From an uncultured bacterium (GTDB lineage Bacteria > Margulisbacteria > WOR-1 > XYC2-FULL-46-14), in contig CAYQVW010000002.1 of assembly GCA_964421245.1 (NCBI GenBank), positions 280 to 64,279 on the forward strand: a stretch of 64,000 nt of DNA, given 5' to 3'. Below the pieces are notes generated by a model that searched no databases, was not told the origin of the DNA, and saw only the letters and a list, made by a program, of their open reading frames with translations. Shown piece after piece: positions 30,084-48,931 of the stretch; position 1 is the first letter of the stretch; each line of letters opens with the position of its first letter. A program made the position numbers and the translations under genes.

Positions 30084-30491
30084 TTATTTGGGTAATATCC
30101 CTTTAACCCAAGAAACAAATCTATCGGCATGTAAAACTACTGCCTCTGCATCATGTTTTGGAAAACACTTCCCTTCATATTCGATCAGATTTTTCTTGGC
30201 GATAAGACGACGAAGATGATTTACCGCTTCCTTTAGCCCCTCTTTATTAATTAGAGAAAGAGTAAGTCGAACAGCATCATCATGATTTTTACTAGAACTT
30301 CTAATTCCGTACAAACAAACCAATAATGCATCATTAGCAGAAATCCCTGCATGCACAGCATCAAGTCCAGCCGCATTCCAATTCTCTTTGTCTAAATTTT
30401 CTTGGGCTGACTTTAGGAAATCCAAAGCTTTTTTAAGAAAACTAATGTAAGTTGATTTATCTACATTTGTAGTCTGAAACTTAGGGTTCAT
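30084..30491 (-). CDS. HEPN-domain protein (MNT-HEPN pair)
   Basis: KKALDFL..AVHAGISANDAL..H..KKNLIEY; overlaps the nucleotidyltransferase gene. Confidence 0.8.
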   Translation of the reverse strand: MNPKFQTTNVDKSTYISFLKKALDFLKSAQENLDKENWNAAGLDAVHAGISANDALLVCLYGIRSSSKNHDDAVRLTLSLINKEGLKEAVNHLRRLIAKKNLIEYEGKCFPKHDAEAVVLHADRFVSWVKGILPK

Positions 30492-31098
30492 AAACCAACT
30501 CCAAGATGGTCTTACCATACAAAACCAGAGCATCCTCTGCAATGTTTCTTATAAAATTATTTCCCTTTTTGTAGCGTTTCTTCAAATCGTTTCTTTTTAA
30601 CAAAACAGGAGAAAGTCCATTGCCAAATTTTTTCGATATTTCAAAATTCAGATCGTCCATTCTTTTTTCGGTCTTTTCAATCGAACAACTCTGAGAAAGA
30701 ACTATTAATAAATCTATGTCGCTATCATCCCTCTCTTTTCCTTTTGCCACGCTCCCAAAAAGAATAATACTTAAAACACCAAAAGTTTTTTTCTTAATTT
30801 TACCAACAATTAATTTAAGAAGTGACTTTTCAATAACAAACAGCGGGATCAAGCCTTTTTCAACCAAAATATTATTCCTATTTAACTTATAAAGCTTGGA
30901 TCTCCCGCTTTTACGCATTAAAACAATGCCCGAACTAAAAAGAGAAAGCAGGGAATGGTGCACAATTCGCTGAGCAAGTTTTGTTGATCGGGCAATTTCT
31001 CGGCCCGTAAGCTCAAGTGTGTTGTCAGCCAATACTCTGAGCACTCTTAACTTTGATTTTTGTCCTAATATACTATCTAATGTTTGATGGTATTTCAT
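30481..31098 (-). CDS. HTH-nucleotidyltransferase (MNT antitoxin-like)
   Basis: N-terminal winged HTH (LTGREIAR) and ILFGSVAKG...DSDIDLL. Confidence 0.88.
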   Translation of the reverse strand: MKYHQTLDSILGQKSKLRVLRVLADNTLELTGREIARSTKLAQRIVHHSLLSLFSSGIVLMRKSGRSKLYKLNRNNILVEKGLIPLFVIEKSLLKLIVGKIKKKTFGVLSIILFGSVAKGKERDDSDIDLLIVLSQSCSIEKTEKRMDDLNFEISKKFGNGLSPVLLKRNDLKKRYKKGNNFIRNIAEDALVLYGKTILELVYEP

Positions 31099-31220: not shown

Positions 31221-34200
31221 TTACTTGCTGTAAGCCATAGAAGCTAAAGCATTAAATGTATCACGACTCAAAAGCCCACTTGTACGACCTTGAACATATT
31301 GTCTGTCAACCTCTAGTGGTGCACCATCCCACCTCTTCAATCCCCTTACTCTTCTTGCCTCAGTTGCTTTACTCCAATATAGACTCTGTCCATTTTTTCT
31401 TAAATAAGATGCAAACCTCTTAAAGTTAACTCCGCGAGATCTAATACGATTAAAATCAGGAAGTCTATTTACATAAAAGAGTTTACGTGCTCCTACAACT
31501 CTCCCTTCAAAATATGCCCTAACCAAAACTTTGTTTGGATTATCTGGCATTCCAAGTCTCTTCATATGCTTCCAGGTAGAATTAATCTGTTTATGAGCAT
31601 CTAAGAACTTAGCTACTCCTTTATTTTTCTTTCTCTGAATCATCTCCCATCTTGCAGCAGTATAAGCATTTTGGAATTTTGCTCCAGAAAGTCTGCGAGA
31701 AGATCTTGGAATTCTTCGGAGAACCGCTCTCTCGTCTTTAATGCTTTGAGATATATCCTTTATATATTTTTTTGTCTTTGCATAAGAACGTCTTACCGGT
31801 TTAACCAATATCTGAACCACTTTTCTAACAATTTGAGATTGAACTTCATCCATGCTTCCTGGTTCAATTGAAAAAGTTTGTTCAACTCCCGCAATTCTTA
31901 CTGCAACTTTATTTTCCCCTAGCAACTTAACCAATCCTCTTTCACCAGAAAGAGTAAAAACTCCATCTGCTCCTTTAAAATCAAAATAAACTTTTGGATT
32001 TCTTAGCGAAGAAATCAGCTTTCTCATTTTAGCCATTTTTTGTCTTGCTTTTCTCTGTTCAGCACGAAGAGAAACAAGATAGGCCCTAAATCCTCTAGCA
32101 TTATAGATTTTTTGAGATGTCAAAAATCTCTTACATCCTTTTGCGACCCTCGCTTTTTGAGTGGCAACTCGTTTCTGATAAAGATCATAGGCTTTGTTAG
32201 TATCAACATACGCCTTATAAAGAGCCTGCATTTCCTTAGTAAAGTATCCAACTAATTGACTTTCAAACCCTTTTCTATCAAAAACATGTTCTCTTCCCTG
32301 CTCTGGTCTATATTTATAACGAAATTGGAATGCCCCATTAGTTGCAGAATTAAATTCTGGTTTTGCCCATGCTGTATCCTCTAATACCACATGCCCTTGT
32401 CTTCTTAATCTGGCTTTAAATCTTTTCATTCCTGATACCAAGACTCTTCTGAAGAAAGCTCTTCTCTTTTCATCCATCTTTTCCTTCAAACTATTGTCAA
32501 CAAAAACACCAACAACTTTCTGCATTGCTCCTTTTTCTACCTTTCCACAAAGATCTTGCATTGCTTTTGTTGCTCTTTCAATTGCTGTTGGATCCTTAAT
32601 CGAATATAAATGCTTTAATGAGCGAATCCCTGTCCTCTTAACTAAATCTTCAGCAACGGATCCCTTTAGGAGTCCAACATCTTTTAATGCTAATGCGACC
32701 TCCAAAGCAAACCTTGGATTGTTTTTCAATACTGCTCTAAAACTAGAAACCCTGACAACATCGGCTTGAGTCTCTGAACGTGCCCAGTGAACAACTGGCT
32801 TTCCCTGCGCAGCCTGAGCTAAGGATATATCATAATATCTAGTTTCAGTTGAAGCATTCTGTAAAGGAGTTGACTCAAGAACAGATGCTGCTGTTCCAAG
32901 AACCGGAATTGCTTTCAACCCTACTCTTTTCAAAAATGTTTTTCCAAACAATTTTGCTGCCGCAACAATGGAGGTAAGGTCCATTCCAACTTCTAGGGCC
33001 ATTCCTAAAGTTCCCATATCATTCATATCTTTATTAAAACCAAGTTTTAATCCTTTGTTGACCCAATGTGATGGAGAAATCCCCTTAAATATCCATGAGG
33101 CTGGTTTTCCAATTGCATAGAGTGGAATTTGTCCATATGTTCTAATTCCCCAGGTATCATTCTGCCAAACAATTTGAGCAGACTCAGCAGTTAAATGAGA
33201 AACAATAACAGCAGCTGCTAAAGATAAGAGTTTTGCTCTTCCTGGAAGTTTATTTCCATAAGTTTTTGCAAAATGAGCTCCAACCTTATGAGATGTGTAT
33301 AAGAATGGAACCAATCCATAAGCCCCAATAAATAGATTTGCTGGAATATCAGCATCTTTACCATGAACCAAAGGATGGACAACAGAATCATAAGCAATAA
33401 CAAGATTTGCTGCTGTATGAGCATTGATCTTCATCATTTTTGATAAGAAGATTTTCTTCCCTTCAAAAACCCCCCAGTGTAATGAAGTTTGATACCCTTC
33501 TTTTAAAACTGCTCCAAGACTTACCTGGGATCCTTTCGCAACTTGTTTCAATAGTCCCCCCAATAAACCAGCAACTAAACCAGAACCCATACCAGTTACT
33601 GGAGAATAAGAAGAATAAAGTGCTCTGCGGAAACTATAACGAACTTTCTGTCCTGTAGTTAAATTATTCATTGGAAATTCAGCTTTAAAGTTTGAAAGGT
33701 TAAAATCATTAATTGTTCTAGCATTTTGCTCGTGCAATAATCTGTATTGATCGATTGGGCTTTCAATCCCTCGTTCTCTACACAAAGTGTAAAATTCTGC
33801 TTCAGAAATTCCACGGCTTTCAAGTTCTACTTTAACTAAGTGTCCAGCTCTCTCTAAGGTTGCAAGCTCTAATGCTCTTTCTTGTACCTCAAGTTGAACC
33901 TGAGGATCTTCTAATAGCTTTGTTCCAAAAACTGATCTGTGTCGAGCTAAAACTTCTTCAGCAGCACGTTGTTGTAAAGCTTCAAGATTTGTTTCTTGTG
34001 CTACTCCCTGACTCATAATCTTTCTAAGTAATCCTTCTCTTCTTAGGGTATCAATTACTCTTGATGCATCAGGAACCTTACCATCTAATAAGGCAAATAA
34101 TTGTTTGCGTGCTGCAATATAATCTTCATGAGTTGGATCAAGTGTTAACTTCTCTAAAGTAGCCTTATCAGCTTTAACTCCAGGAACAACTTCAACAAAC

Positions 34201-37200
34201 CTGGTATGTTCATACATTCTTTCTTCTAAAGGAACATCTGTTGGAACACTTTCAGGATTAAGTGCTGGATCAATTAAGCTTGATAACACCCTACTTGCTG
34301 CCTTACTTGGATCAAGGGTTGGATTTGCTTTTCCAACTGCCTCTCCAATTCTAACCATTGCTTCTCTTCCTGAATGAGCTTCAAGCACATCAGAAACTCT
34401 AATATCAATTGTTAGCTCACTTTCACCAACCTTAATAGTTCTTTGAATAGTTGATTTACCTGCTTCTTTGGCTTGTCTTGCAGCCTCAAGTAATTCCTTA
34501 CTTTCTATTTCCTTTTGTACTGCTTTTATTTGTTCACCGTTTTCATCCATAGGAACTGGTTTTCCATTTACCTCCATTGTTGCTGTTGCTCCAGAATCAA
34601 CTAAGATTGCCATCTCAGCTTGGTGTCCTCTGCGGAAAGCACGCGCATCTTCAGTAGTAACTCCAGAAAGGCTAACCCTTTCATTTCCTACTATTCTAAC
34701 TCTCTGCCCTTCTTTTAATGATAATCCTTCAAGATGAGTATTCATTTCATACTCTGAATTAAAATCTGCAGTTCTTACTGTAACCGTTGGAGCAGTTGAA
34801 GAGGCCTGAGGAACCATTCTAGTAGGAGCAGTATGCCCATCCACAAGGTTTCTTAAGGTCCAAACTCTAGCTCCTGCTCCAGGTCCTGCAACTGCATCAA
34901 TATGTGCTGGATTTTGTCCGTCATGAGTCGATCCAATTTGTAAACTACCATCTGGAGCTGCAATATAATCTCTAACACAAACCCTACTCTTTGCATCAAT
35001 AAAAAGATATTGATTTCCCTGTCCCTCTACTATCATTCCATTCATTCGTCTTAAATGAATTAATGGAGTTCCATCTGTCCCTCTAGTAATAATAACTGCA
35101 TATCTGGTACCATCATAATTTTCTGGAATCGCTCTAAGCACGGTATCAACATCTGCTGTAGAACCAAAAACAACTCCACGTCTAGCATCGAAAAATCTAA
35201 CTCCACGAGCATGCATCTCTCTTGCAAAAGCATCTATTGGTCCAGATCCCAAAGTAGTGCTTATACGACCAACTTTTATTACTTCTCCCCTTCTTCCTCT
35301 AGGTTTTGTTAAGATAGCTTTTGGATCAACTTTTCTAGCTTCTGGTGGTCTAACTTCTGCTGGTTTAGAAGCAGGAGTAGGTTCTGGAGCCCTAGGAGCT
35401 TTTGGTCTTTCCGGTGTATATTCTTCAGGAAGATCAACATCTAGTGTTAAATCAATATTTAATTTTCTTGGGAATAGCTTAAATTCTCTTTCAAAGGCTT
35501 CGAGTATTCTACGCCCCATACCGGTTCTAAGTCCGGCAAAAAGCCCTTCAACTTCACGATCAACCATAGCTTGAGCATCTACTTTTCTCCCTTTCGGAGT
35601 ATAGATATCACTCATTTCTGCAACTGCATGTCTTGCTCCTGAACGGAAAGCTTCTCTAGCTTCTTCAAACCAAGTTCTAAACTGCTGATGAAAAGCTCCA
35701 CCTGTATTACCAAAAGCTATTCCTGCAAATTTTGCACCATCAAAACGAGAAAAAAGTGCAACAGTGATTCCTCTTGAAATTCTTCTCTGTAAGGCAGCAG
35801 CATCACTTCCTTCTGCTGGCCAATTAATGTTTAACCTTTTTCCGAAAAGCACCTCAAGTTCATGTTCGACAGCAGCTCTTCTCTTTTCATATGTATCATT
35901 TTCTGGATTATTAAATGAGCGAGCAACAACAAAGTTAACATACTCAGAGACTAGTCTTCTAAAAACCTGGATCGGACTAACTCTACCAGAACCATTAACC
36001 ATAAATGATTGTCCAACTGTATCAAACCAATTATAATAATCTCTAAACTGGTTCATACTCCAAAGAGTTTGTTCTGCCTGAGCTAATCCTTGTTGACTTG
36101 CTATTTGTCGTCCTACTTGAAGTTTTGCATCAAGCACCTGTCTCTCTGGCATATTGAAGTCAGGTCTTCTCATTTGAGACTGTAGCTCTTGATCATATTG
36201 AAAAGCTGCTTCATCAAGAGAATATACTGGTCGGAGTTCAGCATTATCAGTATCACGAGCAAAGCGCTCATGTGCCTGTTTAACTGACCAAGATTCTGTT
36301 CCAGCTCCAGCTAAAAATGCAACAACCTTAGTTGCTCCTTGTTGAACACGAATATCATCTGCACGGTTAAATGTTCCAAGAGTAATAGTATTTGGATTAC
36401 CTGCAGTATCCACAACCCTCTGCCTTCGAGCAACACTATCATTCTCGTGGGTTAATAAGGTTACTTGTTTAGCTAGAGTAGGCAAACGTGACTCAATCAT
36501 TCTCCCTAAAGCAGAATCACCAAATAATTGGACTACAATTGGTTCAGTTGACCTTGTTCTTAAAGCAATTATTTCTCTCGCAATATAATCTGCCTTGGCT
36601 TCACGATTTTTATGATAAACAGTTTCATTCATCTCAATCGTACTAATTGATAATTTAACAGATTGTCCTTGGATAGATCTCCTTCTCCCATTGTATGCCT
36701 GAGCTAATGCAACTTGAGCCCTATTGCTTGGATCTACTATTATCTTAATAGGTGAACTTGTTCTTCCACGAATACTAAGCTGAGCATCAAGTTCAGTTAA
36801 TCTTCTCTCTAAATATTGTTGATCAGTTTCTCCCTGAGTTCTTGATTTAGCATCAGTTAGGTCAATACGAGGGACGTTTTCTGTCTGAGTAAAAATCTTA
36901 ATACCTAGTTTTCTACAAAAGTCTAAAACTGTTGGATCATTCATTGTTCCAGAAATAAATACAACATTTCCACCTCTTACATCAAAACGATTCAAAAACT
37001 CAAGAGAAGTATCACTTTGCACTGCAACTGTATCTTTTCTTATCTTAAATCCACATACTGCCTCAAGTGCTTGGTGTTGTCCGTCTTCAAAACGGTTATC
37101 AATCATTAATCGATCGAGTTCTTGATCAATAATAAAAATTCTTTTACCAACATAATCACAATAAACCTGACCATTTTGTATATATCTTAATGCTTCTAAA

Positions 37201-40200: not shown

Positions 40201-43028
40201 TGCTTCAAGTTACCACTAAAAACGGAAACATAAGCCTGAGTAGGATCATTGTATTCTTGCAAAATTAGAAAGTGCATAAAAGGAGAGATAACAACACGTG
40301 GCTGATCACCTAAGTTATTATTACTCATCTGAGCCAGTTTATTCAAAAAGACTGATGAGGTTGAAAAAGGATCATTATCTCCATTTATGTTTACTCGTCC
40401 AGTATCAGTTGCTAGAGCTGCTGCTGCAACAAGCAGGGTAACATATCCCGGCAACACCCTACTAACAGCAGCAACTGCATTAACTTCCGCTTTAACACTA
40501 AAATTAACCTCATAAAGTAGTTTTGCTAAAGCCATCTTCGCTACTTGGACCCGAATAGAATCAGATGGTTGCGGGGTTAAAGTGTCCCACCTTTTCCCTG
40601 TAGATAATTTTAAAGTTTTTTCAATAAATGCCAGTGGATCTTCGTTATATTCCTTAATAAGATCATGCCCAACAGAGTCAGCTATCCCTCTTTGAAGACC
40701 GAATGGCATTGCCCATTCCAATACTCCCAAACAATTTGTAGCTGTATTATGTATTTTATGAGCATCTGATTTAAAGTGATTCCAAAACCACCAAGTAATA
40801 GCTCCACCACCATATTGATCAAGTAGTCCTTGAAGTTTCTCTTGATTAGCAGCCAAACGATCCATATAAGTAATTTTATTAGCATTCCCTTTAGCTGATT
40901 TTAATTGATGACGTAAGGTCGCTCTCTCTGCAAAAGCGGCTTTAAAATGAGATTGAATTTTTGGGAATTGCTTTTGAGCATATCGAGCTTTTAAAGTTGC
41001 TATCTGCTGTTGAACCTCACGTCCACCAAAGTTTACAGAAACACGTTCTGTCTGGGCAACTCCACCACCACCAGTTAATGCATCATAAACAACTGCACTT
41101 CTGTCTAATTCTTTTGGAACTGGACGATGAACTGTTAACGAAAATCCAATCCTTCTAAGAATTGCAACAGCAGGTTCATTTCCTGTTAAAGTATAGACAA
41201 CTTCTTTTCCTTGAAGCAACTTATCACCGTAGGCCTCTAGAACTCCTGCTTCCTTAGCAGATATTCTTCCAGCATTATAGGTAACCTTTCTTCTTCCCTT
41301 CGCACTTTTAAGAGCAGCTGTAACTCCAGCCTCTCCCTTACCCCAAAATGTTTTTGGATATAATGCCAAAAGAGCTGCTTTAGCTTTTGGATCAGTTAAC
41401 TTTCCACAAATATCAGGAATCTGTGCATAATCAACTCTAGTTAACTTCTTTCCTCCAACGATCTTTCTTAAAACGGCTAATTCTACCGGATCAAATCTCT
41501 TCGCATTGCTTCCTCGTTGTTCATCAATTAATGCTAAACTTGCACTTGTACTTAGATTAGCAATCTTTATTTCAGAAGGCCCAAGCCTATCAGCAACAGT
41601 CTTAACATCTTGCCCTGTTAAAGTTGCTTCTCCCAAATTAGAAACAGTTCCCCCTAATCCATCAACAACATGCTTAATCCCTTTAATAAAACTCTTTGAA
41701 GGAATTTCTGAGAAAGTACAATCTACCTTATCCCCATCAAGTTCCTTCTGGCCATGAGTATCAATCAATATTTTTGGAGCTGAGCTAATCCCCTCAAGCA
41801 ATACGGCAGCCCGTCTATCATAAGCCTTTGCTGTTTGCGAAACTACAGTTAATACAAACTCTTTCTTATAATCTTTACCAAAACAAAATTTAACAGGAAC
41901 ACCCGCTTTAAGATCAGCCTTAACATTTTTTACTAATATCTGTTGAACAATCTGATATTTGATAGCTTCTTTCCGAGTAAATTTTTGACCTTTTTCTAAA
42001 AGATAATAATATCCTTCAAATTTTGCCCGTAATAATTTGGCTAAGGCTGGCTTGGATGTATCAAGAGATTTAATGGTTTTAACTACTTTATGAGCGACCA
42101 GTACAGCCTTACTCCATCCATCTAGGCTAAAATCTTTATTTTTCCCAAGAGACATAAGCAATTGAAAACTTAAAAACAATGCCCTCAAAAACAAACTACG
42201 GTCGTTAAGATTATCATAAGTATTTAAAGCTCTATTTATATTATTAAGAAGTTCAAGATAGATTCGGTTAGCTTCTTTTGGATCCATAGAAAGTTTCTCT
42301 GAAAGACTCTTAATTAGTTTTTCTCTAGATTGCATTTTTTGACGCTGGCTGGTTAATATCTGTTCAGAATGATCGTCATAGAACTTCTGCATGGAAGTAT
42401 GGAACTCACCAGTGTATCCAGCCATTTGAAGCATATTTTGATTGTAAGTACGTTGGAAACCGGTAGATTCTAGATTAAGACCAGAAATTGAAGCTGGGTT
42501 AATAACTACAGTTGAAACAGCTTTTAGGTCTGGGTTGTATCCAAATTTATTTAAAGTAACAAATAAAGGGTCTCTTTTTGCTGGACGATATACTCGAACT
42601 TTTTCCCCACCCAAAAAGGCTATTTTATTTTCGGTTAAAGTTCCTACTCTATCAGAAGCAAAGGTATAGAACTTAACTATAAGCTTTCCTTCTGCTATAG
42701 CATTAAACCATCTCAAAAATTGAGCTCTATCTGCCGCATTTTTTATTGGGAGAAGTTTTAATAGTCTACTCTTACTTAGTAGAGCAACTGTGTCGGCTGA
42801 GATTTCTGAAATCGGAGGTTTTCCCTGTTTACTTAATTCTGCATTAATAATTTTTAGAAGCGAGGTAAAAGCGGTACGGACTTTTGATTCAAGATAAATG
42901 GTCTTTGATTTTGAATCGGTTGATACAGCAAAAGCATGTCGCCCTTTGCCAAATTTCTGCACGGAGATCTTTTTGGCATCTAGCTTTACCAATCTTGGAA
43001 AGCGGTCATTTAATGACTCAATCCCCAT
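31221..43028 (-). CDS. Giant protein (3935 aa) with internal SecA-like DEAD ATPase and hydrophobic helical regions
   Basis: Uninterrupted 11.8-kb ORF with AAGGAGG RBS; SecA-like motifs GGGKT, YALRDHAE, VGDEGD..SRTPLIISEG, RFEDGQHQALEA, ISGTM and VYSLDE. Confidence 0.85.
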   Translation of the reverse strand: MGIESLNDRFPRLVKLDAKKISVQKFGKGRHAFAVSTDSKSKTIYLESKVRTAFTSLLKIINAELSKQGKPPISEISADTVALLSKSRLLKLLPIKNAADRAQFLRWFNAIAEGKLIVKFYTFASDRVGTLTENKIAFLGGEKVRVYRPAKRDPLFVTLNKFGYNPDLKAVSTVVINPASISGLNLESTGFQRTYNQNMLQMAGYTGEFHTSMQKFYDDHSEQILTSQRQKMQSREKLIKSLSEKLSMDPKEANRIYLELLNNINRALNTYDNLNDRSLFLRALFLSFQLLMSLGKNKDFSLDGWSKAVLVAHKVVKTIKSLDTSKPALAKLLRAKFEGYYYLLEKGQKFTRKEAIKYQIVQQILVKNVKADLKAGVPVKFCFGKDYKKEFVLTVVSQTAKAYDRRAAVLLEGISSAPKILIDTHGQKELDGDKVDCTFSEIPSKSFIKGIKHVVDGLGGTVSNLGEATLTGQDVKTVADRLGPSEIKIANLSTSASLALIDEQRGSNAKRFDPVELAVLRKIVGGKKLTRVDYAQIPDICGKLTDPKAKAALLALYPKTFWGKGEAGVTAALKSAKGRRKVTYNAGRISAKEAGVLEAYGDKLLQGKEVVYTLTGNEPAVAILRRIGFSLTVHRPVPKELDRSAVVYDALTGGGGVAQTERVSVNFGGREVQQQIATLKARYAQKQFPKIQSHFKAAFAERATLRHQLKSAKGNANKITYMDRLAANQEKLQGLLDQYGGGAITWWFWNHFKSDAHKIHNTATNCLGVLEWAMPFGLQRGIADSVGHDLIKEYNEDPLAFIEKTLKLSTGKRWDTLTPQPSDSIRVQVAKMALAKLLYEVNFSVKAEVNAVAAVSRVLPGYVTLLVAAAALATDTGRVNINGDNDPFSTSSVFLNKLAQMSNNNLGDQPRVVISPFMHFLILQEYNDPTQAYVSVFSGNLKQIIAKSNKVKPSDVAKLDNFVGKLLVRVNSNGYVLAEAKKLITSGELKGLKIKDGKVVLKRAIKSPASPFELYQPEKEEDSDRKNIGQLVLDSWRLMDLFRATPKSDRPLGVALQKSLQRHYPTTHKVSFKSYEDSSFNESIPLKTSVPGLDLLEGPAPIYVVPLWISQLGAQLVHRGGKTAYHLSKSIYQTYKMMNEFRSAVEAGDLDRAEEIYYGPKLARELRAAHAAGDKAKVNKLLGEISAHKMWQKTDGAIKGSKELFGSKEQEGKTGLIFTVAGLWWGITKYMLDPRIAYRNIKLHFQKIMNGDEDIFSLATASHAASMLFWGMWGMLVTYTDYAIGKGIFRWMGGKTPGHLPVPITLKPLVWAFKPLFQVVDGKIEKVRANKAAAKQEKDLQAECERRLGVLERLAGAGEKGWHHLTNWDNSPVASRLKAVGSSALRKINRVPVLRRVVGTTGELAHRGVVSPAKKIFTLYYSGKFWGAVRTIATVGLNRPLSPFNAYEKGRYADQVRRDLGVSGRIPASVLRGFYGDYKNPLPDLNLSRQAVFTIDTDNKVRMDRRADKRFALYKGRLKRIVKLLPSRYAVTLDNGKGGEKVESLRVGRVRIVDGNAFSPVVYRGEDSEMKLEVRIGRENLFAYTSEAVVGAVEKSISEAGSFVPTRLNMDPTTNTTSGSSATDPAEEARYERAKEAEIVEVNREFDAYFRANRLDIEAIDAKRAKVSTLRGELASATKGEKKRLLKEIKGLEAEIRADAVALIERTGVNGREGNALANYKVQVRLIKGIDLSPPQLDTIISGRDGRSSQKECGGGKTVIAAGISILRVLNGEKVYVLGTHKDYALRDHAEAEIYFKQFGISTGTNKGLQGGSLGSLRRAFQADVVYTSLHDLMFVNLANRSLPLNENIPISFKRSIVGDEGDYLLVTMSRTPLIISEGAGGLEGVVEANRWGRAAAYAKSFWKTPGGMWEFGSRGVQFTEEGLEFVRTKGLNEAMRKKIIRCLEALRYIQNGQVYCDYVGKRIFIIDQELDRLMIDNRFEDGQHQALEAVCGFKIRKDTVAVQSDTSLEFLNRFDVRGGNVVFISGTMNDPTVLDFCRKLGIKIFTQTENVPRIDLTDAKSRTQGETDQQYLERRLTELDAQLSIRGRTSSPIKIIVDPSNRAQVALAQAYNGRRRSIQGQSVKLSISTIEMNETVYHKNREAKADYIAREIIALRTRSTEPIVVQLFGDSALGRMIESRLPTLAKQVTLLTHENDSVARRQRVVDTAGNPNTITLGTFNRADDIRVQQGATKVVAFLAGAGTESWSVKQAHERFARDTDNAELRPVYSLDEAAFQYDQELQSQMRRPDFNMPERQVLDAKLQVGRQIASQQGLAQAEQTLWSMNQFRDYYNWFDTVGQSFMVNGSGRVSPIQVFRRLVSEYVNFVVARSFNNPENDTYEKRRAAVEHELEVLFGKRLNINWPAEGSDAAALQRRISRGITVALFSRFDGAKFAGIAFGNTGGAFHQQFRTWFEEAREAFRSGARHAVAEMSDIYTPKGRKVDAQAMVDREVEGLFAGLRTGMGRRILEAFEREFKLFPRKLNIDLTLDVDLPEEYTPERPKAPRAPEPTPASKPAEVRPPEARKVDPKAILTKPRGRRGEVIKVGRISTTLGSGPIDAFAREMHARGVRFFDARRGVVFGSTADVDTVLRAIPENYDGTRYAVIITRGTDGTPLIHLRRMNGMIVEGQGNQYLFIDAKSRVCVRDYIAAPDGSLQIGSTHDGQNPAHIDAVAGPGAGARVWTLRNLVDGHTAPTRMVPQASSTAPTVTVRTADFNSEYEMNTHLEGLSLKEGQRVRIVGNERVSLSGVTTEDARAFRRGHQAEMAILVDSGATATMEVNGKPVPMDENGEQIKAVQKEIESKELLEAARQAKEAGKSTIQRTIKVGESELTIDIRVSDVLEAHSGREAMVRIGEAVGKANPTLDPSKAASRVLSSLIDPALNPESVPTDVPLEERMYEHTRFVEVVPGVKADKATLEKLTLDPTHEDYIAARKQLFALLDGKVPDASRVIDTLRREGLLRKIMSQGVAQETNLEALQQRAAEEVLARHRSVFGTKLLEDPQVQLEVQERALELATLERAGHLVKVELESRGISEAEFYTLCRERGIESPIDQYRLLHEQNARTINDFNLSNFKAEFPMNNLTTGQKVRYSFRRALYSSYSPVTGMGSGLVAGLLGGLLKQVAKGSQVSLGAVLKEGYQTSLHWGVFEGKKIFLSKMMKINAHTAANLVIAYDSVVHPLVHGKDADIPANLFIGAYGLVPFLYTSHKVGAHFAKTYGNKLPGRAKLLSLAAAVIVSHLTAESAQIVWQNDTWGIRTYGQIPLYAIGKPASWIFKGISPSHWVNKGLKLGFNKDMNDMGTLGMALEVGMDLTSIVAAAKLFGKTFLKRVGLKAIPVLGTAASVLESTPLQNASTETRYYDISLAQAAQGKPVVHWARSETQADVVRVSSFRAVLKNNPRFALEVALALKDVGLLKGSVAEDLVKRTGIRSLKHLYSIKDPTAIERATKAMQDLCGKVEKGAMQKVVGVFVDNSLKEKMDEKRRAFFRRVLVSGMKRFKARLRRQGHVVLEDTAWAKPEFNSATNGAFQFRYKYRPEQGREHVFDRKGFESQLVGYFTKEMQALYKAYVDTNKAYDLYQKRVATQKARVAKGCKRFLTSQKIYNARGFRAYLVSLRAEQRKARQKMAKMRKLISSLRNPKVYFDFKGADGVFTLSGERGLVKLLGENKVAVRIAGVEQTFSIEPGSMDEVQSQIVRKVVQILVKPVRRSYAKTKKYIKDISQSIKDERAVLRRIPRSSRRLSGAKFQNAYTAARWEMIQRKKNKGVAKFLDAHKQINSTWKHMKRLGMPDNPNKVLVRAYFEGRVVGARKLFYVNRLPDFNRIRSRGVNFKRFASYLRKNGQSLYWSKATEARRVRGLKRWDGAPLEVDRQYVQGRTSGLLSRDTFNALASMAYSK

Positions 43029-43047
43029 TGTTACCTCCTTTAAAATG

Positions 43048-43078
43048 AAAAAAGCACGTACCTGTTACAACGTGCTTT
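43048..43078 (-). promoter_or_regulatory. Terminator-like hairpin in the leader of the giant gene (possible attenuator)
   Basis: AAAGCACGT-N10-ACGTGCTTTTTT between the promoter motif and the RBS. Confidence 0.45.
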
Positions 43079-43130
43079 ATTTAGAATTTCCTAATTTACA
43101 GGCAAAATTAGTTAACTCTTTCTATAATAT

Positions 43131-43159
43131 ATATCGTAATAAAGGATGAATAACTTGCA
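43131..43159 (-). promoter_or_regulatory. Orphan-regulon promoter motif, type B
   Basis: TGCAAGTT-attcatcctttatta-CGATAT. Confidence 0.75.
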
Positions 43160-43218
43160 TGAAAAACAAGAAAAATACTATCAAAATTTAGCCTGTTTAT
43201 AATAAATTTTAATGGTTA

Positions 43219-46200
43219 TTATTTTGTTAATGAGCTAGCAGCAACCACTCCGGTCTCTTTGCCAACAACAATCTCGTACCAGGCGCCTTTTTTCCCAACA
43301 ATCTCAACTACTGTTCCGGATTTCAACTTTCTAATCTTCGCTTTAGTCGTAGCATTCCTTAAAACTGTATCAAATTTAACAGTTGCTTTTCCAGTCAGTG
43401 GACCACCAGAACCACCAGCTCCTCCACCTGCACCAGGTCCTTTTGGCCCCCTAAGACCACTCGGTCGTTTTCCTCCACCCTTTCCCCACTCTGATTTAAA
43501 AGCATCGTATGCTTCTTTATCCGTTCCTTTTAAGTGTAGCTTAATCGCTTTACCAAGCCCCTTCTCTCTAATATTTCCAATAACTCTCTTAAACTGCATA
43601 TACCCCATTGGTCCTAAATCATCTTTATTTTCCTCTAACCACTTATCTAATTTAGCAGCAAGAGCATCTTTTGGAGTTTTAGCCTTAAATCCTGCCTTAA
43701 CTAATTTAACAAATTTATCAATTGCCGCAGCCATCTTTACCAATCTTTCTTTATTTGCTGGATGCCAATCCCTAGTAGGTATGTGGGTAGACATAGATTT
43801 TGGAGTACCCTTCCTATTAATTTCTCCGGTCCATTTTGTCATTAATTCTCTTTGTGCTTTTCCATATGGAACCTCTCCTCTTTGAAAATCGTCCGGAGTA
43901 ATATCCAAGAAACTCCTAACTTCATCAGTAATTCCCTTAGTATCTAAAGGAACAACTTTAAATTTCTTCTCAATAGGATCATACTTTTGACCCTTAACGA
44001 CCCCTTTTCTTAAGGCCGCAAATTTTGTTGCCTCAGATTGAGGAAGCTGTGAAAGAGGGAGTGCTAACAATGCTTCTATTGATTTATCAATTTTTCCAAA
44101 ACCATCATAAACTGCCTTTGCTCCTGCCCTAAGTCCCCTTTTCGGCTCACCAATTGCAAGAGCCAAACGATCACTTGGTCCATCTTTAAAAACTAAAGCA
44201 TCTTTCCTTCTTCTTAAATATGTACCATAATACGCCTTACGTGCTTCTCTTAGAGCTTCTTTATAGGCCACTCTAGCAGCACTCCAATTTTTGCTATCAA
44301 CAGCAACTTTTGCACGAGTTAGCGCTTGATCAACTTTGTTAGAATCATATGGTGTTGATAGTGCCTTTATTTGAGCATCTATACTCCTTTTAATTTCAGG
44401 CCTATAACTTCCTTTCGGACCAAGCATCCTTCTTTCTTCCGGACTTACATTTGTTTTTGCACTTTTAGGATCCCAATTATTCCTTTGCATACGTTCAAGC
44501 GCTGTACCAAAAGCAAACTCCTCTCTCTTTTCTGGAGTTAATCCACCCTCCTCCTCTCCATCCACTACATCTCCCCCCTCTTCAACCTCATCCACTTCCG
44601 GCTCTTCCATCTCTCCACCAGCTAAATACGCCTTAACATTTTTAGCTGTAAAAGCTGCTAGTTTTTCCAACTTCCCCTTAATCCCAAAATAAGTATCCAA
44701 TACACTTGGTGGAAGCTGCGCCAAACGAGATAAACCGACATATATGTCTTTCAAAACTACTAAGTCATAGGCGGTTAAAATAGGTCCTATTCCAGCAAAT
44801 TTAGCATACTGAGCCATAGCGGCATTATGAGCTGGATTTGTTATCTTTCCCAAAAATCCAGAAAGAGTATTAACTCCGGCAAAATTACTATCTGCCCAAG
44901 CCAAGGCCTCTTTGGTCTCACTCTTTGGCACCATTTCATACCCTAGAACCTCTTTATCATTATAAATACTAGCTGCTTTGTGTAAGGCAGCATTTGGATT
45001 TTGATCATTAAGATGTCGTCTGCGAGCAAAATATTCAAGCGTTGCAAGATGATTTCTGATATCAGATATACTCCACTTTCCATCAGACGATCCATTGATA
45101 TCAGAACCTCGATCAATTAAGTCAGTTAAAACTCCGGTAACTTTGCTACCAGCAGCTTTTAAATCACTTACTTTAACCTCTTTAGCATTTGGATCTATTT
45201 TTAATCCATAAAGTTTATTGAATAAACCGACAGTCTCCTGATCAGTCATTCCCTTAACAGAATAATCGTCCCAAATCCTATCTATTTTAGCTCTAGCCTT
45301 TTGATCACTTGCTTTTGCAGCCACTGCTTTCCAATCTACTGCATCAGGAAGAATTTTTCCATCTTTGACAGTATAACGATAGTCTCCAGAAGAGATCGTT
45401 ACCTCTCTTCCTTTTGATGTAGCCTTCAAGTATTCTACCAATTCACCACTTGATACCTTCCCATCTCGAACAACACCAGCGGCCGAAGTATATTTCTCCC
45501 ATGCAACATAAGTAAGGGAATAGTCATTACCATCTGGTCCTTTAACTTTTATTTTTATTGGATCGGTTTTACCAGATCCTGCAATATCTGCTGCCAAAAA
45601 GTTTAACTGATCCCCTGAATATGGAGGAGTCGGTCTTACTTCCTTTGGAACAGAGGCTAAATCTACTGGATCAACATCAGTTGTTACCTTTGCATATTTA
45701 GCCTTTGCTGCAGTAAAATCAGCTTTTAGATCTATTGTTGCCGGAAGCTTGTCAGAAGCTACTCTTGAATACGATTCAAGAATACGCTTTGGGAGATGAT
45801 TGGTCCCACGAGTTTTATGTCCAGATCCTTCCCACCCAAAAACATCAGATAAAACTTTATTTAGTGCAACTGAAGTTGGGCTTCCAGTATTATCATTTAT
45901 AACAACCGTTTTTGCATCAGAACTTAATTCAACAGTATAATCCCCAACTTTAATTTTAAGTTTAGGATTATCTTGTAGAAGTTTTGCAATCTGTTTAGCT
46001 TCAGCCTTATATCCTTTATTTCGATCAATACGAACTTTTACTCTAAGCTTAAGTCCTTTTATTTTACTTCGCTCAAGCATGGAAGCATAAAATCCTCTGG
46101 TATTAACAGACACCCTTCTCTTCCCTGTCCTTCGAAGCTCAGCCTTAGCTCGCCTAATCTCCGCCGGTTCAGCAGGTTTACACTTATTCTTTTTGGCAGG

Positions 46201-46251
46201 AAGACTAAAGCTTCCTCTCTTTGGATCATATTTATAACAACCTATTGCCAT
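43219..46251 (-). CDS. Hypothetical protein (1010 aa) with C-terminal bacterial SH3-like domain
   Basis: Gly/Pro linker followed by GKATVKFDTVLR..KLKSGTVVEIVGKKGAWYEIVVGKETGVV; acidic linker mid-protein. Confidence 0.75.
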   Translation of the reverse strand: MAIGCYKYDPKRGSFSLPAKKNKCKPAEPAEIRRAKAELRRTGKRRVSVNTRGFYASMLERSKIKGLKLRVKVRIDRNKGYKAEAKQIAKLLQDNPKLKIKVGDYTVELSSDAKTVVINDNTGSPTSVALNKVLSDVFGWEGSGHKTRGTNHLPKRILESYSRVASDKLPATIDLKADFTAAKAKYAKVTTDVDPVDLASVPKEVRPTPPYSGDQLNFLAADIAGSGKTDPIKIKVKGPDGNDYSLTYVAWEKYTSAAGVVRDGKVSSGELVEYLKATSKGREVTISSGDYRYTVKDGKILPDAVDWKAVAAKASDQKARAKIDRIWDDYSVKGMTDQETVGLFNKLYGLKIDPNAKEVKVSDLKAAGSKVTGVLTDLIDRGSDINGSSDGKWSISDIRNHLATLEYFARRRHLNDQNPNAALHKAASIYNDKEVLGYEMVPKSETKEALAWADSNFAGVNTLSGFLGKITNPAHNAAMAQYAKFAGIGPILTAYDLVVLKDIYVGLSRLAQLPPSVLDTYFGIKGKLEKLAAFTAKNVKAYLAGGEMEEPEVDEVEEGGDVVDGEEEGGLTPEKREEFAFGTALERMQRNNWDPKSAKTNVSPEERRMLGPKGSYRPEIKRSIDAQIKALSTPYDSNKVDQALTRAKVAVDSKNWSAARVAYKEALREARKAYYGTYLRRRKDALVFKDGPSDRLALAIGEPKRGLRAGAKAVYDGFGKIDKSIEALLALPLSQLPQSEATKFAALRKGVVKGQKYDPIEKKFKVVPLDTKGITDEVRSFLDITPDDFQRGEVPYGKAQRELMTKWTGEINRKGTPKSMSTHIPTRDWHPANKERLVKMAAAIDKFVKLVKAGFKAKTPKDALAAKLDKWLEENKDDLGPMGYMQFKRVIGNIREKGLGKAIKLHLKGTDKEAYDAFKSEWGKGGGKRPSGLRGPKGPGAGGGAGGSGGPLTGKATVKFDTVLRNATTKAKIRKLKSGTVVEIVGKKGAWYEIVVGKETGVVAASSLTK

Positions 46252-46263
46252 CCATTTTCTCCT

Positions 46264-46285
46264 ATGCTTCGACTTCGCTCAGCAT
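46264..46285. repeat. REP-like element, family B
   Basis: ATGCTTCGACTTCGCTCAGCAT, in the leader of the 46251 gene. Confidence 0.65.
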
Positions 46286-46330
46286 TTAAAAAAAATCATA
46301 ATAACCCCTTAACAGGGGTCTACATTATAT

Positions 46331-46359
46331 ATATCGCATTAACTTGCACAAAACTTGCA
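46331..46359 (-). promoter_or_regulatory. Orphan-regulon promoter motif, type B
   Basis: TGCAAGTT-ttgtgcaagttaatg-CGATAT. Confidence 0.75.
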
Positions 46360-46401
46360 CGCCTTCGCCAATTTTTTTGGCTTCGGCGCACAGGCATGGA
46401 A

Positions 46402-48198
46402 TTATACAGTTCCAGCAGTTTGTTCAAAAAATATCAATTGGCTCCTAACCTCTTGATGCTTTCCTTGCTTAAATAGACCTCTAAATATTTGTTCATAAGT
46501 TGCAGCATATTTATTGTAACCTCGGTCTCTTAACCTCACTAACCCATCTCTAACTCTTTTTCTAAGCCCCCTCGCTTCTTTTAGACTTCCTAGAGATTTT
46601 TCTATCAATGGTTTATAAACTGCATATTGAGCAATGTTCCTGTCCTTATTATTATAAACATTAGTCAAAATCGCTAATGCATTTTGAGGTTTACCCTGTT
46701 TTATTCTGATCCTAGCTACTAAATAGGCATACCCTGCATGATATTTTCCATTCAATTCTTTATATCCCTTAGAAGCAATTCTAGCCTGAGTATTTGCTTT
46801 TGTATATTCTTGTACATGATAGTATTGATAGGCATTTGTTGCTGCTATCTCAACATCACACTTTGCAACTAATTCTTTATCACCCAACTTAACTGCTATC
46901 TCTCTGGCTTCAGTAAGATAATGAAAACGATCTCCATATTCAACTGAATAGTGTAGAGTACTAACTTCAATTCCTTTTGCTCGAGCATATAAATCATTAG
47001 CTTTTAATTCAAGATGCATATCCTCGTTCAAGTCAATTGATATTTGTAAACTATTCAAAGCATCAATTGCTGTTTTACCCAACTCAACATCATAAGAGTC
47101 TTTATTGTTTAATGCATAAGCAATAGCTTTTCTAGCAAGAGCGAGATCCTTAAGGGGCATCTCTTTTGATCTAGTTGCTCTTTCAACTATTGCCCCAATC
47201 AGCTTAATTTCAACTGATAAACAATAGTATTCTGAGCCCTCCTTAATCTGCGCACGAAGAGCATATAGCGTTTCTATTAATTCAGGAAGGTTATCTACCT
47301 TATGTGCTCTGTGAGCCCTCTCAAGTAATTCTACGGTTTCTCTTTGTCTAACAACTAATGGTGTATCATTAGCTCTTGCCAAAGCAGCTTTTGCATCTAA
47401 TACTGCTTCAAGCCCATTTTCAAGTTTCGCATCCAAAGCCTTATTATAGAAAATATGTGCTTCAGCCTGAAGAATTAATTCCTGAGCCTGTTCCAATCTC
47501 TCTTTTGCCCCAACCTCCTGACTATAAAGTGCTTCTTCCTTAATTTCTCTTGCAAAATCAATTGCTGCATCATATCTTTCTTCACTAAATTCCGCATAAA
47601 CAATAGAAAAACGATAAATTATAGTAACTTCCAATTTTAACGCTACTACTCCTTTAGCACTTAATCCCTTATAAGAACCATCCTCAATCTTTGCTAAAAT
47701 AGCTTTTGCTGCTATTCCTGCCTTGGCATAATCTTTTGCTTTATAATAAACATAGGCCTGAGCAAGATCCGCCACATCTTCTCTAGTATCAAACTTATCT
47801 GGTTTCGTCTCAACCTTAACAGCTCTTCTTGGAGGAGGAGCCTCTGGTTCAAATTGAAATTCTGGATAAGTAACCGGCTCTTCTTCAGCTTCTGGAGTAT
47901 GAGCCTCTTTATGAACAGTAACTTTAGACATTTGAATAGTTAGGCCATCAGATGTAGTAGCTGTTGGAGTAGCCATAGCTTGTTTGATCACTACTGCTAA
48001 CTGCTCTGCTGGTTTATTTGGAGCTAACCCATTCCCTACAAGTCTCCCTTGTAATACTGAAAGTTTTGCTAAAGCTTCTTTGTGTTTTCCTGCTTTAAAA
48101 AGACGTCGAGCCTCTTTAAGCTCCGCTGGTTCAGCCGCTGCCGGCTTATAAATCGCAACCCCTTTTATCTTGCCTATCTCTCCATATTTTGGAACCAC
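46402..48198 (-). CDS. Hypothetical alpha-helical, TPR-like protein (598 aa)
   Basis: GTG start with AGGAGG RBS; repeated A..YY....Y..A helical pairs. Confidence 0.7.
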   Translation of the reverse strand: MVPKYGEIGKIKGVAIYKPAAAEPAELKEARRLFKAGKHKEALAKLSVLQGRLVGNGLAPNKPAEQLAVVIKQAMATPTATTSDGLTIQMSKVTVHKEAHTPEAEEEPVTYPEFQFEPEAPPPRRAVKVETKPDKFDTREDVADLAQAYVYYKAKDYAKAGIAAKAILAKIEDGSYKGLSAKGVVALKLEVTIIYRFSIVYAEFSEERYDAAIDFAREIKEEALYSQEVGAKERLEQAQELILQAEAHIFYNKALDAKLENGLEAVLDAKAALARANDTPLVVRQRETVELLERAHRAHKVDNLPELIETLYALRAQIKEGSEYYCLSVEIKLIGAIVERATRSKEMPLKDLALARKAIAYALNNKDSYDVELGKTAIDALNSLQISIDLNEDMHLELKANDLYARAKGIEVSTLHYSVEYGDRFHYLTEAREIAVKLGDKELVAKCDVEIAATNAYQYYHVQEYTKANTQARIASKGYKELNGKYHAGYAYLVARIRIKQGKPQNALAILTNVYNNKDRNIAQYAVYKPLIEKSLGSLKEARGLRKRVRDGLVRLRDRGYNKYAATYEQIFRGLFKQGKHQEVRSQLIFFEQTAGTV

Positions 48199-48252
48199 GA
48201 TATTCCTCCTAGCTCAAAGGCTATATATAATGTAGATCTCTCTACACAGATA

Positions 48253-48281
48253 CTATCGGGATGGGGGGGAGAAAACTTGCA
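48253..48281 (-). promoter_or_regulatory. Orphan-regulon promoter motif, type B
   Basis: TGCAAGTT-ttctcccccccatcc-CGATAG. Confidence 0.75.
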
Positions 48282-48342
48282 TGGATTTAGAAAATAGGAA
48301 TTAGGAAATAGGAACTAGTAAAGGGGAAGCAAAATTGTAGGA

Positions 48343-48478
48343 ATTCTCGGCACCCCTCTTGGAAATTAGAAACTAGGAGATAGGAACTAGCTCTGCTAAT
48401 TTTTACTATATTTACTCCATTTTTTTACCATTTTCTAGTTCCTAGTTTCTATTTCCTAACACGGGCATGGAAATTGCT
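48343..48478 (+). promoter_or_regulatory. Shared 14-bp box plus sigma54-type promoter of four-helix-bundle gene 3
   Basis: ATTCTCGGCACCCC (48343-48356) and GGGCATGGAAATTGCT (GG-N10-GC, 48463-48478). Confidence 0.7.
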
Positions 48479-48506
48479 ACATATAACACAAAGGAGGAAG
48501 CAAAAA

Positions 48507-48899
48507 ATGACAAAATACGGACCAATTAACAACTTTACTGACATCGGAGCCTATAAAATAGGAAAAGAAATAATTAAATTAACATATGGTATCACAGATA
48601 AACTTCCATCAGAAGAAAAATATGGATTAAGCTCTCAAATGAGAAGAGCTGCAGTTTCTTTCACTGCAAACATTGCAGAAGGATATGGAAGGTATCATTT
48701 TAAAGAAAATATACAATTTTGTCTTATTGGCAGAGGATCTATGTATGAATTGCAGGATCATATAATTTCATGTAAAGAAATCGGCTTTATAAAAAACGAT
48801 GAGTTTCAAAATATTTTTACCTTAACAGAAAATGCACTAAAAGCCTTAAACGGGTACATAAGATTATTAAAAAGACTAAAATTAAAAATAAAGGAATAA
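48507..48899 (+). CDS. Four helix bundle protein (23S rRNA IVP / Avd-like family)
   Basis: LPSEEKYGLSSQMRRAAVSFTANIAEGYGR..RGSMYEL; ATG at 48507 after AAGGAGG. Confidence 0.92.
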   Translation: MTKYGPINNFTDIGAYKIGKEIIKLTYGITDKLPSEEKYGLSSQMRRAAVSFTANIAEGYGRYHFKENIQFCLIGRGSMYELQDHIISCKEIGFIKNDEFQNIFTLTENALKALNGYIRLLKRLKLKIKE

Positions 48900-48931
48900 C
48901 AAACTAGTTCCTAATTTCTAGTCTCTAGTCC

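Follow-up and report, generated by a model that had tools for sequence, protein, structure and literature searches.

Two −35 variants of putative sigma-28-type promoters in Margulisiibacteriota/Saganbacteria, and an island of large genes that carries one of them

Results

Three large genes of a 31–48 kb island each have an exact type B site

The DNA analysed here is a 64-kb stretch of contig 2 (positions 280–64279; hereafter 'the window') of a 1.75 Mb, 34-contig genome assembly, labelled G000, and the subject of this report is a bipartite motif, TGCAAGTT-N15-CGATA ('type B'), that stands ahead of three large genes in a 31–48 kb island of the window. The motif occurs three times in the window, with 0 mismatches each time and on the minus strand only, and a search of the 64 kb allowing up to two mismatches found no further copy. 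The start codons of open reading frames (ORFs) of 3935, 1010 and 598 amino acids (aa) lie 103, 80 and 55 nt downstream of the three sites, and the initial annotation, which had given each large gene its own motif, was thus right on this point. The accompanying claim that the motif is confined to the island holds within the window and fails for the genome, which has nine exact sites and 23 sites of a core form defined below. The chance expectation for an exact match to the 13 fixed bases in 64 kb is about 0.002; at up to two mismatches, shuffled sequences give a mean of 1.57 matches and 20 of 100 shuffles reach three, a test that alone is not significant. The reversed-pattern control for the exact motif gives 0 matches in G000 and 1 across all 121 genomes of a phylum sample.

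The first gene of the island, encoding 598 aa (46402–48198, minus strand), has its predicted promoter at 48254–48281 (minus strand; TGCAAGTT at 48281–48274 and CGATA at 48258–48254), an exact match located 55 nt ahead of a GTG start codon, and the inferred 48-nt leader opens with a 6-bp hairpin. The 598-aa protein matches no Pfam family and lacks a signal peptide. The second gene, encoding 1010 aa (43219–46251, minus strand), has its predicted promoter, likewise an exact match, at 46332–46359 (minus strand), 80 nt upstream of the ATG, with an extra copy of TGCAAGTT 11 nt downstream, within the spacer; the same double-box layout recurs in genomes G079, G023 and G028. The leader of the 1010-aa gene has a computed fold of −20.4 kcal/mol and carries at its 5' end a terminator-like, GC-rich hairpin followed by a T-run (46303–46320, minus strand). 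The 1010-aa protein is basic at its N-terminus and lacks a signal peptide; of 48 other genomes of the class of G000 (hereafter 'class genomes'), two alone gave matches to it, both weak and partial, and a look-up in the ESM atlas gave none.

The third gene encodes a giant protein of 3935 aa (31221–43028, minus strand), and its predicted promoter is an exact match at 43132–43159 (minus strand), 103 nt upstream of the ATG. Its 96-nt leader contains a terminator-like hairpin, GCACGT...ACGTGC, with a T-run (approximately 43051–43078, minus strand), and the whole leader has a computed fold of −20.5 kcal/mol. A SecA-like motor module occupies residues 1657–1989 of the protein. Among proteins of 2164–6887 aa, the giant has one relative, P0002 (3823 aa, 40% identity), with domains PF07517, PF21090 and PF01043.

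The three domain calls made initially for the island proteins are of unequal standing. The SecA motor of the giant is solid (SecA_DEAD at 53.6 bits against a cut-off of 24.6, with SecA_PP_bind, at 22.9 bits, slightly under its cut-off of 23.5). The SH3 call for the 1010-aa protein is sub-threshold, its sole Pfam match being a C-terminal SH3_3 hit of 19.4 bits (E 0.0012) against a cut-off of 27 and thus below the Pfam gathering score. The TPR call for the 598-aa protein comes down to a weak lead in the ESM atlas (score 0.85).

The genome contains two discrete −35 classes

To place the island sites in a genomic context we scanned the genome with TGnAAnTT-N13-16-CGA[AT]A, which gave 158 matches. 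By far the largest groups were TGAAATTT-N14-CGATA (94 sites) and TGAAATTT-N14-CGAAA (33 sites), which together define a second motif, 'type A' (TGAAATTT-N14-CGA[TA]A; 127 exact sites). TGCAAGTT-N15-CGATA gave nine sites and TGCAAGTT-N14-CGATA none. TGAAATTT-N13-CGATA gave three sites, the hybrids TGCAATTT-N14-CGATA and TGAAATTT-N15-CGATA gave five and three, and the matches left over are other hybrids, few in number. Thus −35 type and spacer length co-vary, and hybrids are rare.

Type A comprises 127 exact and 96 one-mismatch sites (reversed control, 0 and 14). Type B, with its core redefined as [TC][GA]CAAGTT-N15-CGAT[AT], comprises 23 sites and 25 more at one mismatch (reversed control, 1 and 13). 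Counting related sites, the 1.75 Mb genome holds about 210 of type A and about 25–35 of type B. Other type B sites lie on contigs 1, 2, 3, 4, 8, 12, 16, 18, 19 and 34, including two further clusters of three, both on contig 1 (at about 192–200 kb and about 259–268 kb).

When hexamers at all distances ahead of the 6216 CGAT[AT] words of the genome were counted, two classes only were enriched: TGAAAT at the type A spacing (112 observed, 3.5 expected) and CAAGTT at 15 nt (26 observed, 2.1 expected). We conclude that types A and B are discrete and do not grade into a continuum, as the initial annotation had anticipated. Only the two boxes are conserved among sites and spacer sequences are variable; when the sites are aligned on the −10 box, types A and B have AA[A/G]TTT at one common position.

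Sites of both classes are oriented into downstream genes

Of the 127 type A sites, 126 are followed on their own strand, at no more than about 200 nt, by the start of an ORF of at least 50 aa. The start codon most often lies 7 nt past CGATA and is less than 10 nt away in 38 of these 126 cases, and a TA is conserved 7–8 nt downstream of the type A CGATA. A start at this TA, combined with such short distances to the start codon, would leave many type A transcripts leaderless. Type B leaders are mostly longer, with about 24–103 nt between box and start codon at the nine exact sites, and more of them fold at −8 kcal/mol or below in their first 45 nt (35%, vs 9% for type A). The results indicate that the motif is bipartite and strand-specific, has a fixed spacing, and is always oriented into the downstream gene.

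A scan of 30.9–49.0 kb of the window for sigma-70 promoters found 36 consensus-like sites, vs 46.7 in shuffled sequence, and no consensus-like site at the three island promoters. The tRNA genes of G000 have canonical TATAAT-type −10 boxes and lack the type A box. Directly upstream of several of them, namely tRNA-Thr, -Asn, -Arg, -Thr and -Glu on contigs 1, 9, 11, 14 and 29, there are runs of three to four CTGATAn heptamers.

Both promoter words are conserved across the phylum

Exact-word counts in the sample of 121 phylum genomes found type B in 94 and type A in 109, with reversed controls at approximately zero. Class genomes have about 4–18 exact B sites and 5–170 exact A sites. A:B ratios differ widely by family, from 50:0 in G049 and 24:0 in G070 to 1:9 in G012 and 0:3 in G082, and one family is nearly devoid of both. 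Since the island proteins are nearly private to G000 and the promoter class in front of them is phylum-wide, the type B class appears to be ancient and many of the genes that it serves appear to turn over fast.

Type B sites stand at a flagellar-type cluster, at barrel genes and in other islands of giant genes

Contig 25 of G000 carries a flagellar-type cluster that runs from a fliK-like gene to flhA (locus L145, contig 25:4541–13622) and comprises FliK-, FlgD- and FlgE-like genes together with the genes for FliM, FliN, FliP, FliQ, FliR, FlhB and FlhA. Searches of G000 found no flagellin, no FlgM, and one rod/hook-family protein only. All 49 class genomes searched have an FlgE-like gene, and 113 of the 121 phylum genomes have FlhA; Flagellin_N is found in 1 of the 49 class genomes.

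Upstream of the first gene of the cluster in G000 is TGCAAGTT-N15-CGAAT, which overlaps TTGCTT-N16-TATAAT. We searched 1.5 kb upstream of the FlgE-like gene in 30 class genomes and found a type B or B-like box at this operon in 27. A strict type B box is present in 11 of the 30, G000 included, and a looser form only, nnCAAGnT-N15-nGAnn, for which about 0.09 matches are expected per locus, in 16; the three genomes with no B box include one that has just 713 nt of flank. Type A was found upstream of the operon in none of the 30.

Type B sites also precede genes for outer-membrane barrels. The best homolog of the barrel gene is preceded by type B in 8 of 29 other genomes, and by type A in 0. The barrel family is greatly expanded, with 2–24 matches per class genome and 11 in G000, and only some copies have type B promoters, often with C-rich spacers.

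Islands comparable to that of the window occur in G023 and G079. The two islands are homologous to each other, have four type B promoters each, and contain giant genes of 2620 and 1871 aa and mostly Pfam-less proteins. BLASTP searches at E ≤ 1e-3 with the window island proteins gave no match in these G023 and G079 islands.

Genes behind both classes mostly lack a Pfam family

We compared the first genes downstream of both classes with control ORFs, counting as Pfam-less a protein with no family at E ≤ 0.001. Of the 115 eligible type A first genes, 40 were drawn at random, which gave 39 distinct genes, and 28 of these 39 are Pfam-less; for type B first genes the figure is 21 of 28 (19 of 25, plus 2 of the 3 window genes), and for randomly drawn control ORFs of 150 aa or longer it is 4 of 40. 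Each class differs from the control (p from about 1e-8 to 6e-8), and the classes do not differ from each other (Fisher p = 1.0). The split is therefore not one of enzymes versus structural proteins. The type A genes had been described initially as enzyme-like, a description at odds with the 28 of 39 sampled genes and the 5 of 6 window genes that are Pfam-less; type A genes do include metabolic enzymes, among them phosphofructokinase, starch synthase, 4-alpha-glucanotransferase and an aminotransferase.

Type B genes with a recognisable family encode an SLH-bearing outer-membrane barrel and a paralog of it, a YkuD transpeptidase, an Rrf2 regulator, a TPR/YfiO-like protein, a HEAT-repeat protein and the SecA-motor giant. 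The type B class is in this way tied loosely to 'machinery'. The suggestion in the initial annotation that type B serves structural or delivery components and type A serves cargo finds no backing in family annotation, both classes being Pfam-less to the same degree. It is borne out in part by where the classes stand, type B, and not type A, being found ahead of the flagellar-type operon and of some barrel genes, and by the more basic and more often large (at least 700 aa) products of type B genes.

The classes also differ in bulk protein properties, compared here with two doubtful B sites omitted, one on contig 9 (CCCAAGTT...CGATT, ahead of a tRNA and shikimate kinase) and one on contig 14 (TTCAAGTT). 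The median net charge per 100 aa is +5.3 for type B, +0.3 for type A and +1.8 for all ORFs, and proteins of at least 700 aa make up 7 of 26 type B products vs 7 of 125 type A products (p = 0.003). By a crude hydrophobicity rule, an N-terminal signal-like segment is present in 8 of 125 type A proteins vs 362 of all 1570 ORFs. The 154 A and B proteins form seven BLAST pairs and are nearly all mutually unrelated, which indicates that the promoters did not spread through gene duplication.

The −10 box is that of sigma-28 promoters and the −35 boxes are not

The published sigma-28 elements (PMC12784957) are a −10 element GCCGATAA and a −35 element TCTAAAG located 16 nt upstream of CGATA. The −10 element is matched by CGATA at the three window sites and by CGAT[AT] at the 23 core type B sites; the GC that precedes CGATA is not conserved. 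The −35 element, TAAAG about 16 nt from CGATA, is matched by neither class, type B having GCAAG/TGCAAG at 17 nt and type A having GAAAT at 16 nt. The classical arrangement is nevertheless used in the phylum: at flagellin-family loci of flagellated relatives from other families, TAAAG-N16-CGATAA is present in 2 of 11, with one further near match, and within 260 nt of the remaining loci it was not found.

A single FliA-like sigma is conserved phylum-wide

The sigma genes of G000 encode RpoD (346 aa), sigma-54, a sigma of 198 aa (contig 10) and two long sigma-domain proteins. Searches of the genome with Sigma70_r2, r4 and r4_2 found no further sigma; the other region-4 matches are, by sequence, a LuxR-type response regulator, a small helix-turn-helix protein and an ABC-transporter fusion, and were set aside as not being sigmas.

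The top PDB and NCBIfam matches of the 198-aa sigma are all FliA/WhiG. It passes the TIGR02937 cut-off (72.6 vs 42.9 bits). Region 2 spans residues 22–100 and region 4 residues 137–190; the 37 residues between them (100–137), against about 94 in P. aeruginosa FliA, indicate that region 3 is largely missing. Of the 121 genomes, 114 have a FliA-like sigma as a single copy, as do 70 of the 71 that are of high quality, and in several of the genomes with no match flhA was likewise not found or lies at a contig end. The helix of sigma region 4.2 (GLSESQVSRICKEAT) is invariant in eight class orthologs.

The sigma gene is linked to flhA. Of 41 public loci whose upstream flank extends to 2.5 kb or more, 28 carry flhA immediately ahead of the sigma gene on the same strand, and the usual gene order in relatives is flhA, a 70-aa ORF, sigma. 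In G000 the linkage to flhA has been lost, the sigma gene being on contig 10 and flhA on contig 25. The basic 70-aa ORF (G-[IVL]-P-P-x-L-R-R-F-W) is conserved and translationally coupled upstream of sigma at 46 of 49 loci, lies just upstream of the FliA-like sigma gene in G000 (L042:1282–1494, contig 10, plus strand) and matched no known family; its position makes it a candidate anti-sigma or partner of the FliA-like sigma. The sigma operon of G000 has a sigma-70-type promoter, TTGCTT-N17-TAAAAT.

Some families outside the Saganbacteria (G013, G037 and others) have two flhA genes and, in addition to a sigma of the 198-aa type, encode another FliA-like sigma (about 260 aa) a few kb past the other flhA. 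This arrangement suggests two flagellar-type systems, of which the Saganbacteria would have retained one.

The two long sigma-domain proteins, of 637 aa (L003:757–2670, contig 18, minus strand) and 760 aa (L136, contig 6:1984–4263, minus strand), each have a large N-terminal extension and C-terminal sigma-70 domains. We considered each as the type B sigma and rejected both: the contig 18 protein was matched in 3 of the 121 genomes, the two matches outside G000 being weak and partial, and the contig 6 protein is found at full length elsewhere only in G089 and G087, its other matches being RpoD. Proteins so nearly private cannot explain phylum-wide motifs. With only one FliA-like sigma conserved, in single copy, the proposal in the initial annotation that two paralogous sigma factors read the two classes is unsupported by the sigma count.

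Two type A-like boxes lie at sigma genes. One, TGAAATTT-N14-AGACA, is upstream of the long sigma-domain gene of contig 6, and the other, TGAAATTT-N14-AGATA, is just upstream of the ribosome-binding site of rpoD (L001:~1100–1165, contig 27). The latter raises the possibility that the alternative sigma might feed back on the housekeeping sigma.

Type A sites and other features of the window

The type A word TGAAATTT is present in the window in 11 copies, a number not above chance, and eight of the 11 have CGA[TA]A exactly 14 nt on, each oriented into a gene. These eight fix the type A spacer at 14 nt, against 15 nt for type B. On the plus strand, the predicted type A promoters are those of a 5'-nucleotidase-like gene (4254–4280; TGAAATTT-N14-CGATA) and of a 455-aa Pfam-less gene (5977–6003). 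On the minus strand, they are those of an 848-aa Pfam-less gene (23676–23702; start codon 15 nt past CGATA), a 479-aa Pfam-less gene (13095–13121; start codon 9 nt past CGATA), two sites for which the next ORFs are of 124 aa (62110–62136) and 146 aa (4209–4235), and two sites of the CGAAA variant, ahead of a 319-aa Pfam-less gene (2163–2189) and a 330-aa Pfam-less gene (21085–21111). The start codon of the 330-aa gene is 8 nt past the −10 box, and its transcript is therefore probably leaderless. Six window type A first genes were tested against Pfam, the five without a family having been counted above.

At the upstream end of the island, arrays of TAGGAAn/TAGAAAC heptamers at 48283–48465 and 48894–48943 make up long inverted repeats that reach 39 nt at 79% complementarity; the arrays adjoin the type B −35 box at 48281 and flank a small plus-strand ORF of 141 aa (48474–48899), the product of which may resemble the four-helix-bundle '23S rRNA intervening-sequence protein'. 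At the opposite end, adjoining the island, a perfect sigma-70 consensus, TTGACA-18-TATAAT (31165–31136, minus strand), lies upstream of a nucleotidyltransferase/HEPN pair (30084–31098), which indicates that the housekeeping promoter type is present here as well. A search for sequencing runs that match positions 42900–48400 of the window found eight DNA runs, labelled marine or seawater metagenome, and no RNA run.

Discussion

A proposed single sigma for two promoter classes

We lean, by a modest degree of confidence, towards the reading that the three island sites are promoters of an ancient type B class, that this class is one of two −35 variants of sigma-28-type promoters found across the Margulisiibacteriota/Saganbacteria, and that one shared sigma serves both variants. 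The most economical scheme consistent with the sequence comparisons would be a cascade in which RpoD transcribes the gene for the FliA-like sigma and that sigma transcribes A and B promoters. The single conserved 198-aa FliA-family sigma would read both classes via their common −10 box, and the differing −35 box and 1-nt longer spacer of type B would place type B in an expression class of its own, distinct in level or in timing, whether because that sigma has another affinity or threshold for it or because a helper factor takes part. Type B marks the flagellar-type export/hook operon, some barrel genes, a cell-wall transpeptidase, and islands encoding giant, basic, signal-less, fast-evolving proteins; the 31–48 kb island is an example, each of its three genes having a predicted promoter of its own and a long, structured leader.

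Several observations weigh against this scheme. For a single sigma to read two sharply different −35 boxes with few hybrids between them is unusual. Comparison of the region 4.2 helix in 12 genomes from 10 families revealed no change that tracks the A:B ratio, and the independent variation of A:B ratios between families fits two readers equally well. The 198-aa sigma lacks most of region 3 and scores 83.1 bits against the FliA_WhiG model TIGR02479, below the cut-off of 189.6. The anti-sigma family FlgM of Pfam was searched for in G000 and not found, and an A or B box is present within 150–450 nt upstream of the 70-aa ORF/sigma pair at 0 of 48 loci. Several type B sites, including the contig 25 site and that of the 1010-aa gene, overlap a sigma-70-like TATAAT in the spacer. 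Finally, with 21 of 28 type B genes Pfam-less, an 'apparatus/envelope class' rests on a minority of its members.

Alternative readings

The strongest alternative, which we regard as possible though on the whole rather unlikely, is that there are two readers: a separate factor, perhaps an activator, a protein similar to sigma region 4 or a highly divergent sigma that escaped the searches, would bind the TGCAAGTT box and replace or redirect −35 recognition, with the FliA-like sigma still reading the −10 box. Class II activators, and MotA/AsiA of phage T4, work by such a logic. A second reader would account readily for the discrete co-variation of −35 type and spacer with few hybrids, for the length of the conserved box (about 11–12 nt, cATGCAAGTTTT in G023 and G079), for the second copy of the box 11 nt away inside the spacer in four genomes, and for A:B ratios that are independent among families; moreover, one gene for an Rrf2-family regulator itself has an exact type B promoter. 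The difficulty is that no candidate for the second factor was found: the Sigma70_r2, r4 and r4_2 searches gave no further sigma, and the additional sigma-domain proteins are not conserved (contig 18, 3 of 121 genomes, two of them weak; contig 6, full-length in 3 of 121 including G000). The shared AA[A/G]TTT position in types A and B, in addition, fits recognition by one region 4.

A second alternative holds that type B sites are RpoD promoters with a regulator site, CGATA being incidental and the true −10 element being a nearby TATAAT-like hexamer. Some individual sites can be read in this way: at the contig 25 site TTGCTT-N16-TATAAT spans the type B box, the region upstream of the 1010-aa gene can be read as TTGTGC-N16-TATAAT, and TATAAT- or TATGAT-like hexamers are present in many spacers at the flagellar operon. 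However, CGAT[AT] lies exactly 15 nt from the box at 23 sites, vs 1 in the reversed control, CAAGTT is enriched at a single spacing (26 vs 2.1 expected), most type B sites have no properly spaced TATAAT, and the sigma-70 scan of the island fell below shuffles (36 vs 46.7) with none at the three promoters. We consider this alternative improbable.

That the motifs, rather than being promoters, mark the termini or remnants of a repeated or mobile sequence that was copied with its genes is scarcely credible: the motif does vary extremely little from copy to copy, and many of the genes behind it are lineage-specific and gathered in islands, but the downstream proteins are unrelated (7 BLAST pairs among 154), the boxes are conserved and the spacers are not, orientation and distance to the start codon are fixed, and the same boxes stand ahead of conserved operons in many families.

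Comparison with known systems

The system resembles that of sigma-28 (FliA/SigD/WhiG) in its −10 core, CGATA(A/T), which is identical, in the position of the type A −35 pentamer 16 nt from CGATA (GAAAT vs TAAAG), in a predicted transcription start 7–8 nt past the box, in the presence of a FliA-family sigma gene downstream of flhA, and in the classical TAAAG-N16-CGATAA at flagellin genes in flagellated members of the phylum. It differs in its −35 boxes, TGCAAG with a 17-nt gap for type B and TGAAAT for type A, in the unconserved GC before CGATA, in a sigma of 198 aa without most of region 3, and in the gene set served, which here is very large, mostly non-flagellar and Pfam-less, with flagellin and FlgM not found.

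In the B. subtilis fla/che operon, sigD lies at the 3' end, and sigma-A and sigma-D promoters lie upstream. The arrangement in relatives of G000 is similar, with hook and export genes that run to flhA and are followed by the sigma gene, and with a sigma-28-like box that overlaps a sigma-70-like promoter ahead of the operon. Unlike the B. subtilis operon, the G000 cluster shows no rod, filament or chemotaxis genes, the upstream box is the type B variant, and the sigma gene of G000 has moved to another contig.

Extracytoplasmic function (ECF; group 4) sigma families, for example sigma-W, -X and -M of B. subtilis, recognise related and partly overlapping −35 variants, and ECF systems have a two-domain sigma, an AAC-containing −35 box, a CGT-type −10 box and a co-transcribed anti-sigma. 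The present system is ECF-like in that the sigma has regions 2 and 4 only and passes TIGR02937, and in that the promoter is bipartite with a rigid 16–17-nt spacer and with subclasses that differ by 1–2 bases and 1 nt of spacer. It is unlike ECF systems in that the −35 box has no AAC core, the −10 box has no CGT, the closest sequence matches of the sigma are FliA/WhiG, and one sigma stands here beside two box types, in place of several paralogous sigmas.

Significance

A limited literature search turned up no paper on these motifs or this sigma. What is new is the type B class, a candidate FliA-like sigma with linkage to flhA, the tie of type B to a flagellar-type cluster in which searches found no flagellin, and the strong enrichment of Pfam-less genes behind both classes. 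A bolder extension, which we advance as speculation unlikely to hold, is that the flagellin-less cluster and the FliA-like sigma may belong to a flagellum-derived protein-export system present throughout the Saganbacteria. Type B promoters would turn on the machine with its envelope parts, namely the export/hook operon, outer-membrane barrels, wall enzymes and giant basic proteins that act as fibres or motors, the SecA-motor giant among them, and type A promoters would turn on over 200 unrelated, fast-evolving proteins without signal peptides, many of them exported as cargo. Were that so, a free-living candidate phylum would have a two-tier, sigma-28-timed secretion programme.

The one-sigma scheme is open to direct test in vitro with E. 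coli core polymerase, for which cultivation is not required, and the motifs can in the meantime be used to annotate start codons, leaderless genes and operon boundaries in these metagenome-assembled genomes. If the scheme is correct, a FliA relative without region 3 that serves a very large, mostly non-flagellar regulon with two −35 specificities would be an unusual case. For the biology of this uncultivated phylum, two short DNA words sort several hundred function-unknown genes into two putatively co-regulated sets, both tied to one conserved sigma and to a flagellar-type apparatus in which no flagellin was found, and thereby offer a handle on 'dark-matter' genes, given that 72–75% of the genes behind these words are Pfam-less, vs 10% of controls.

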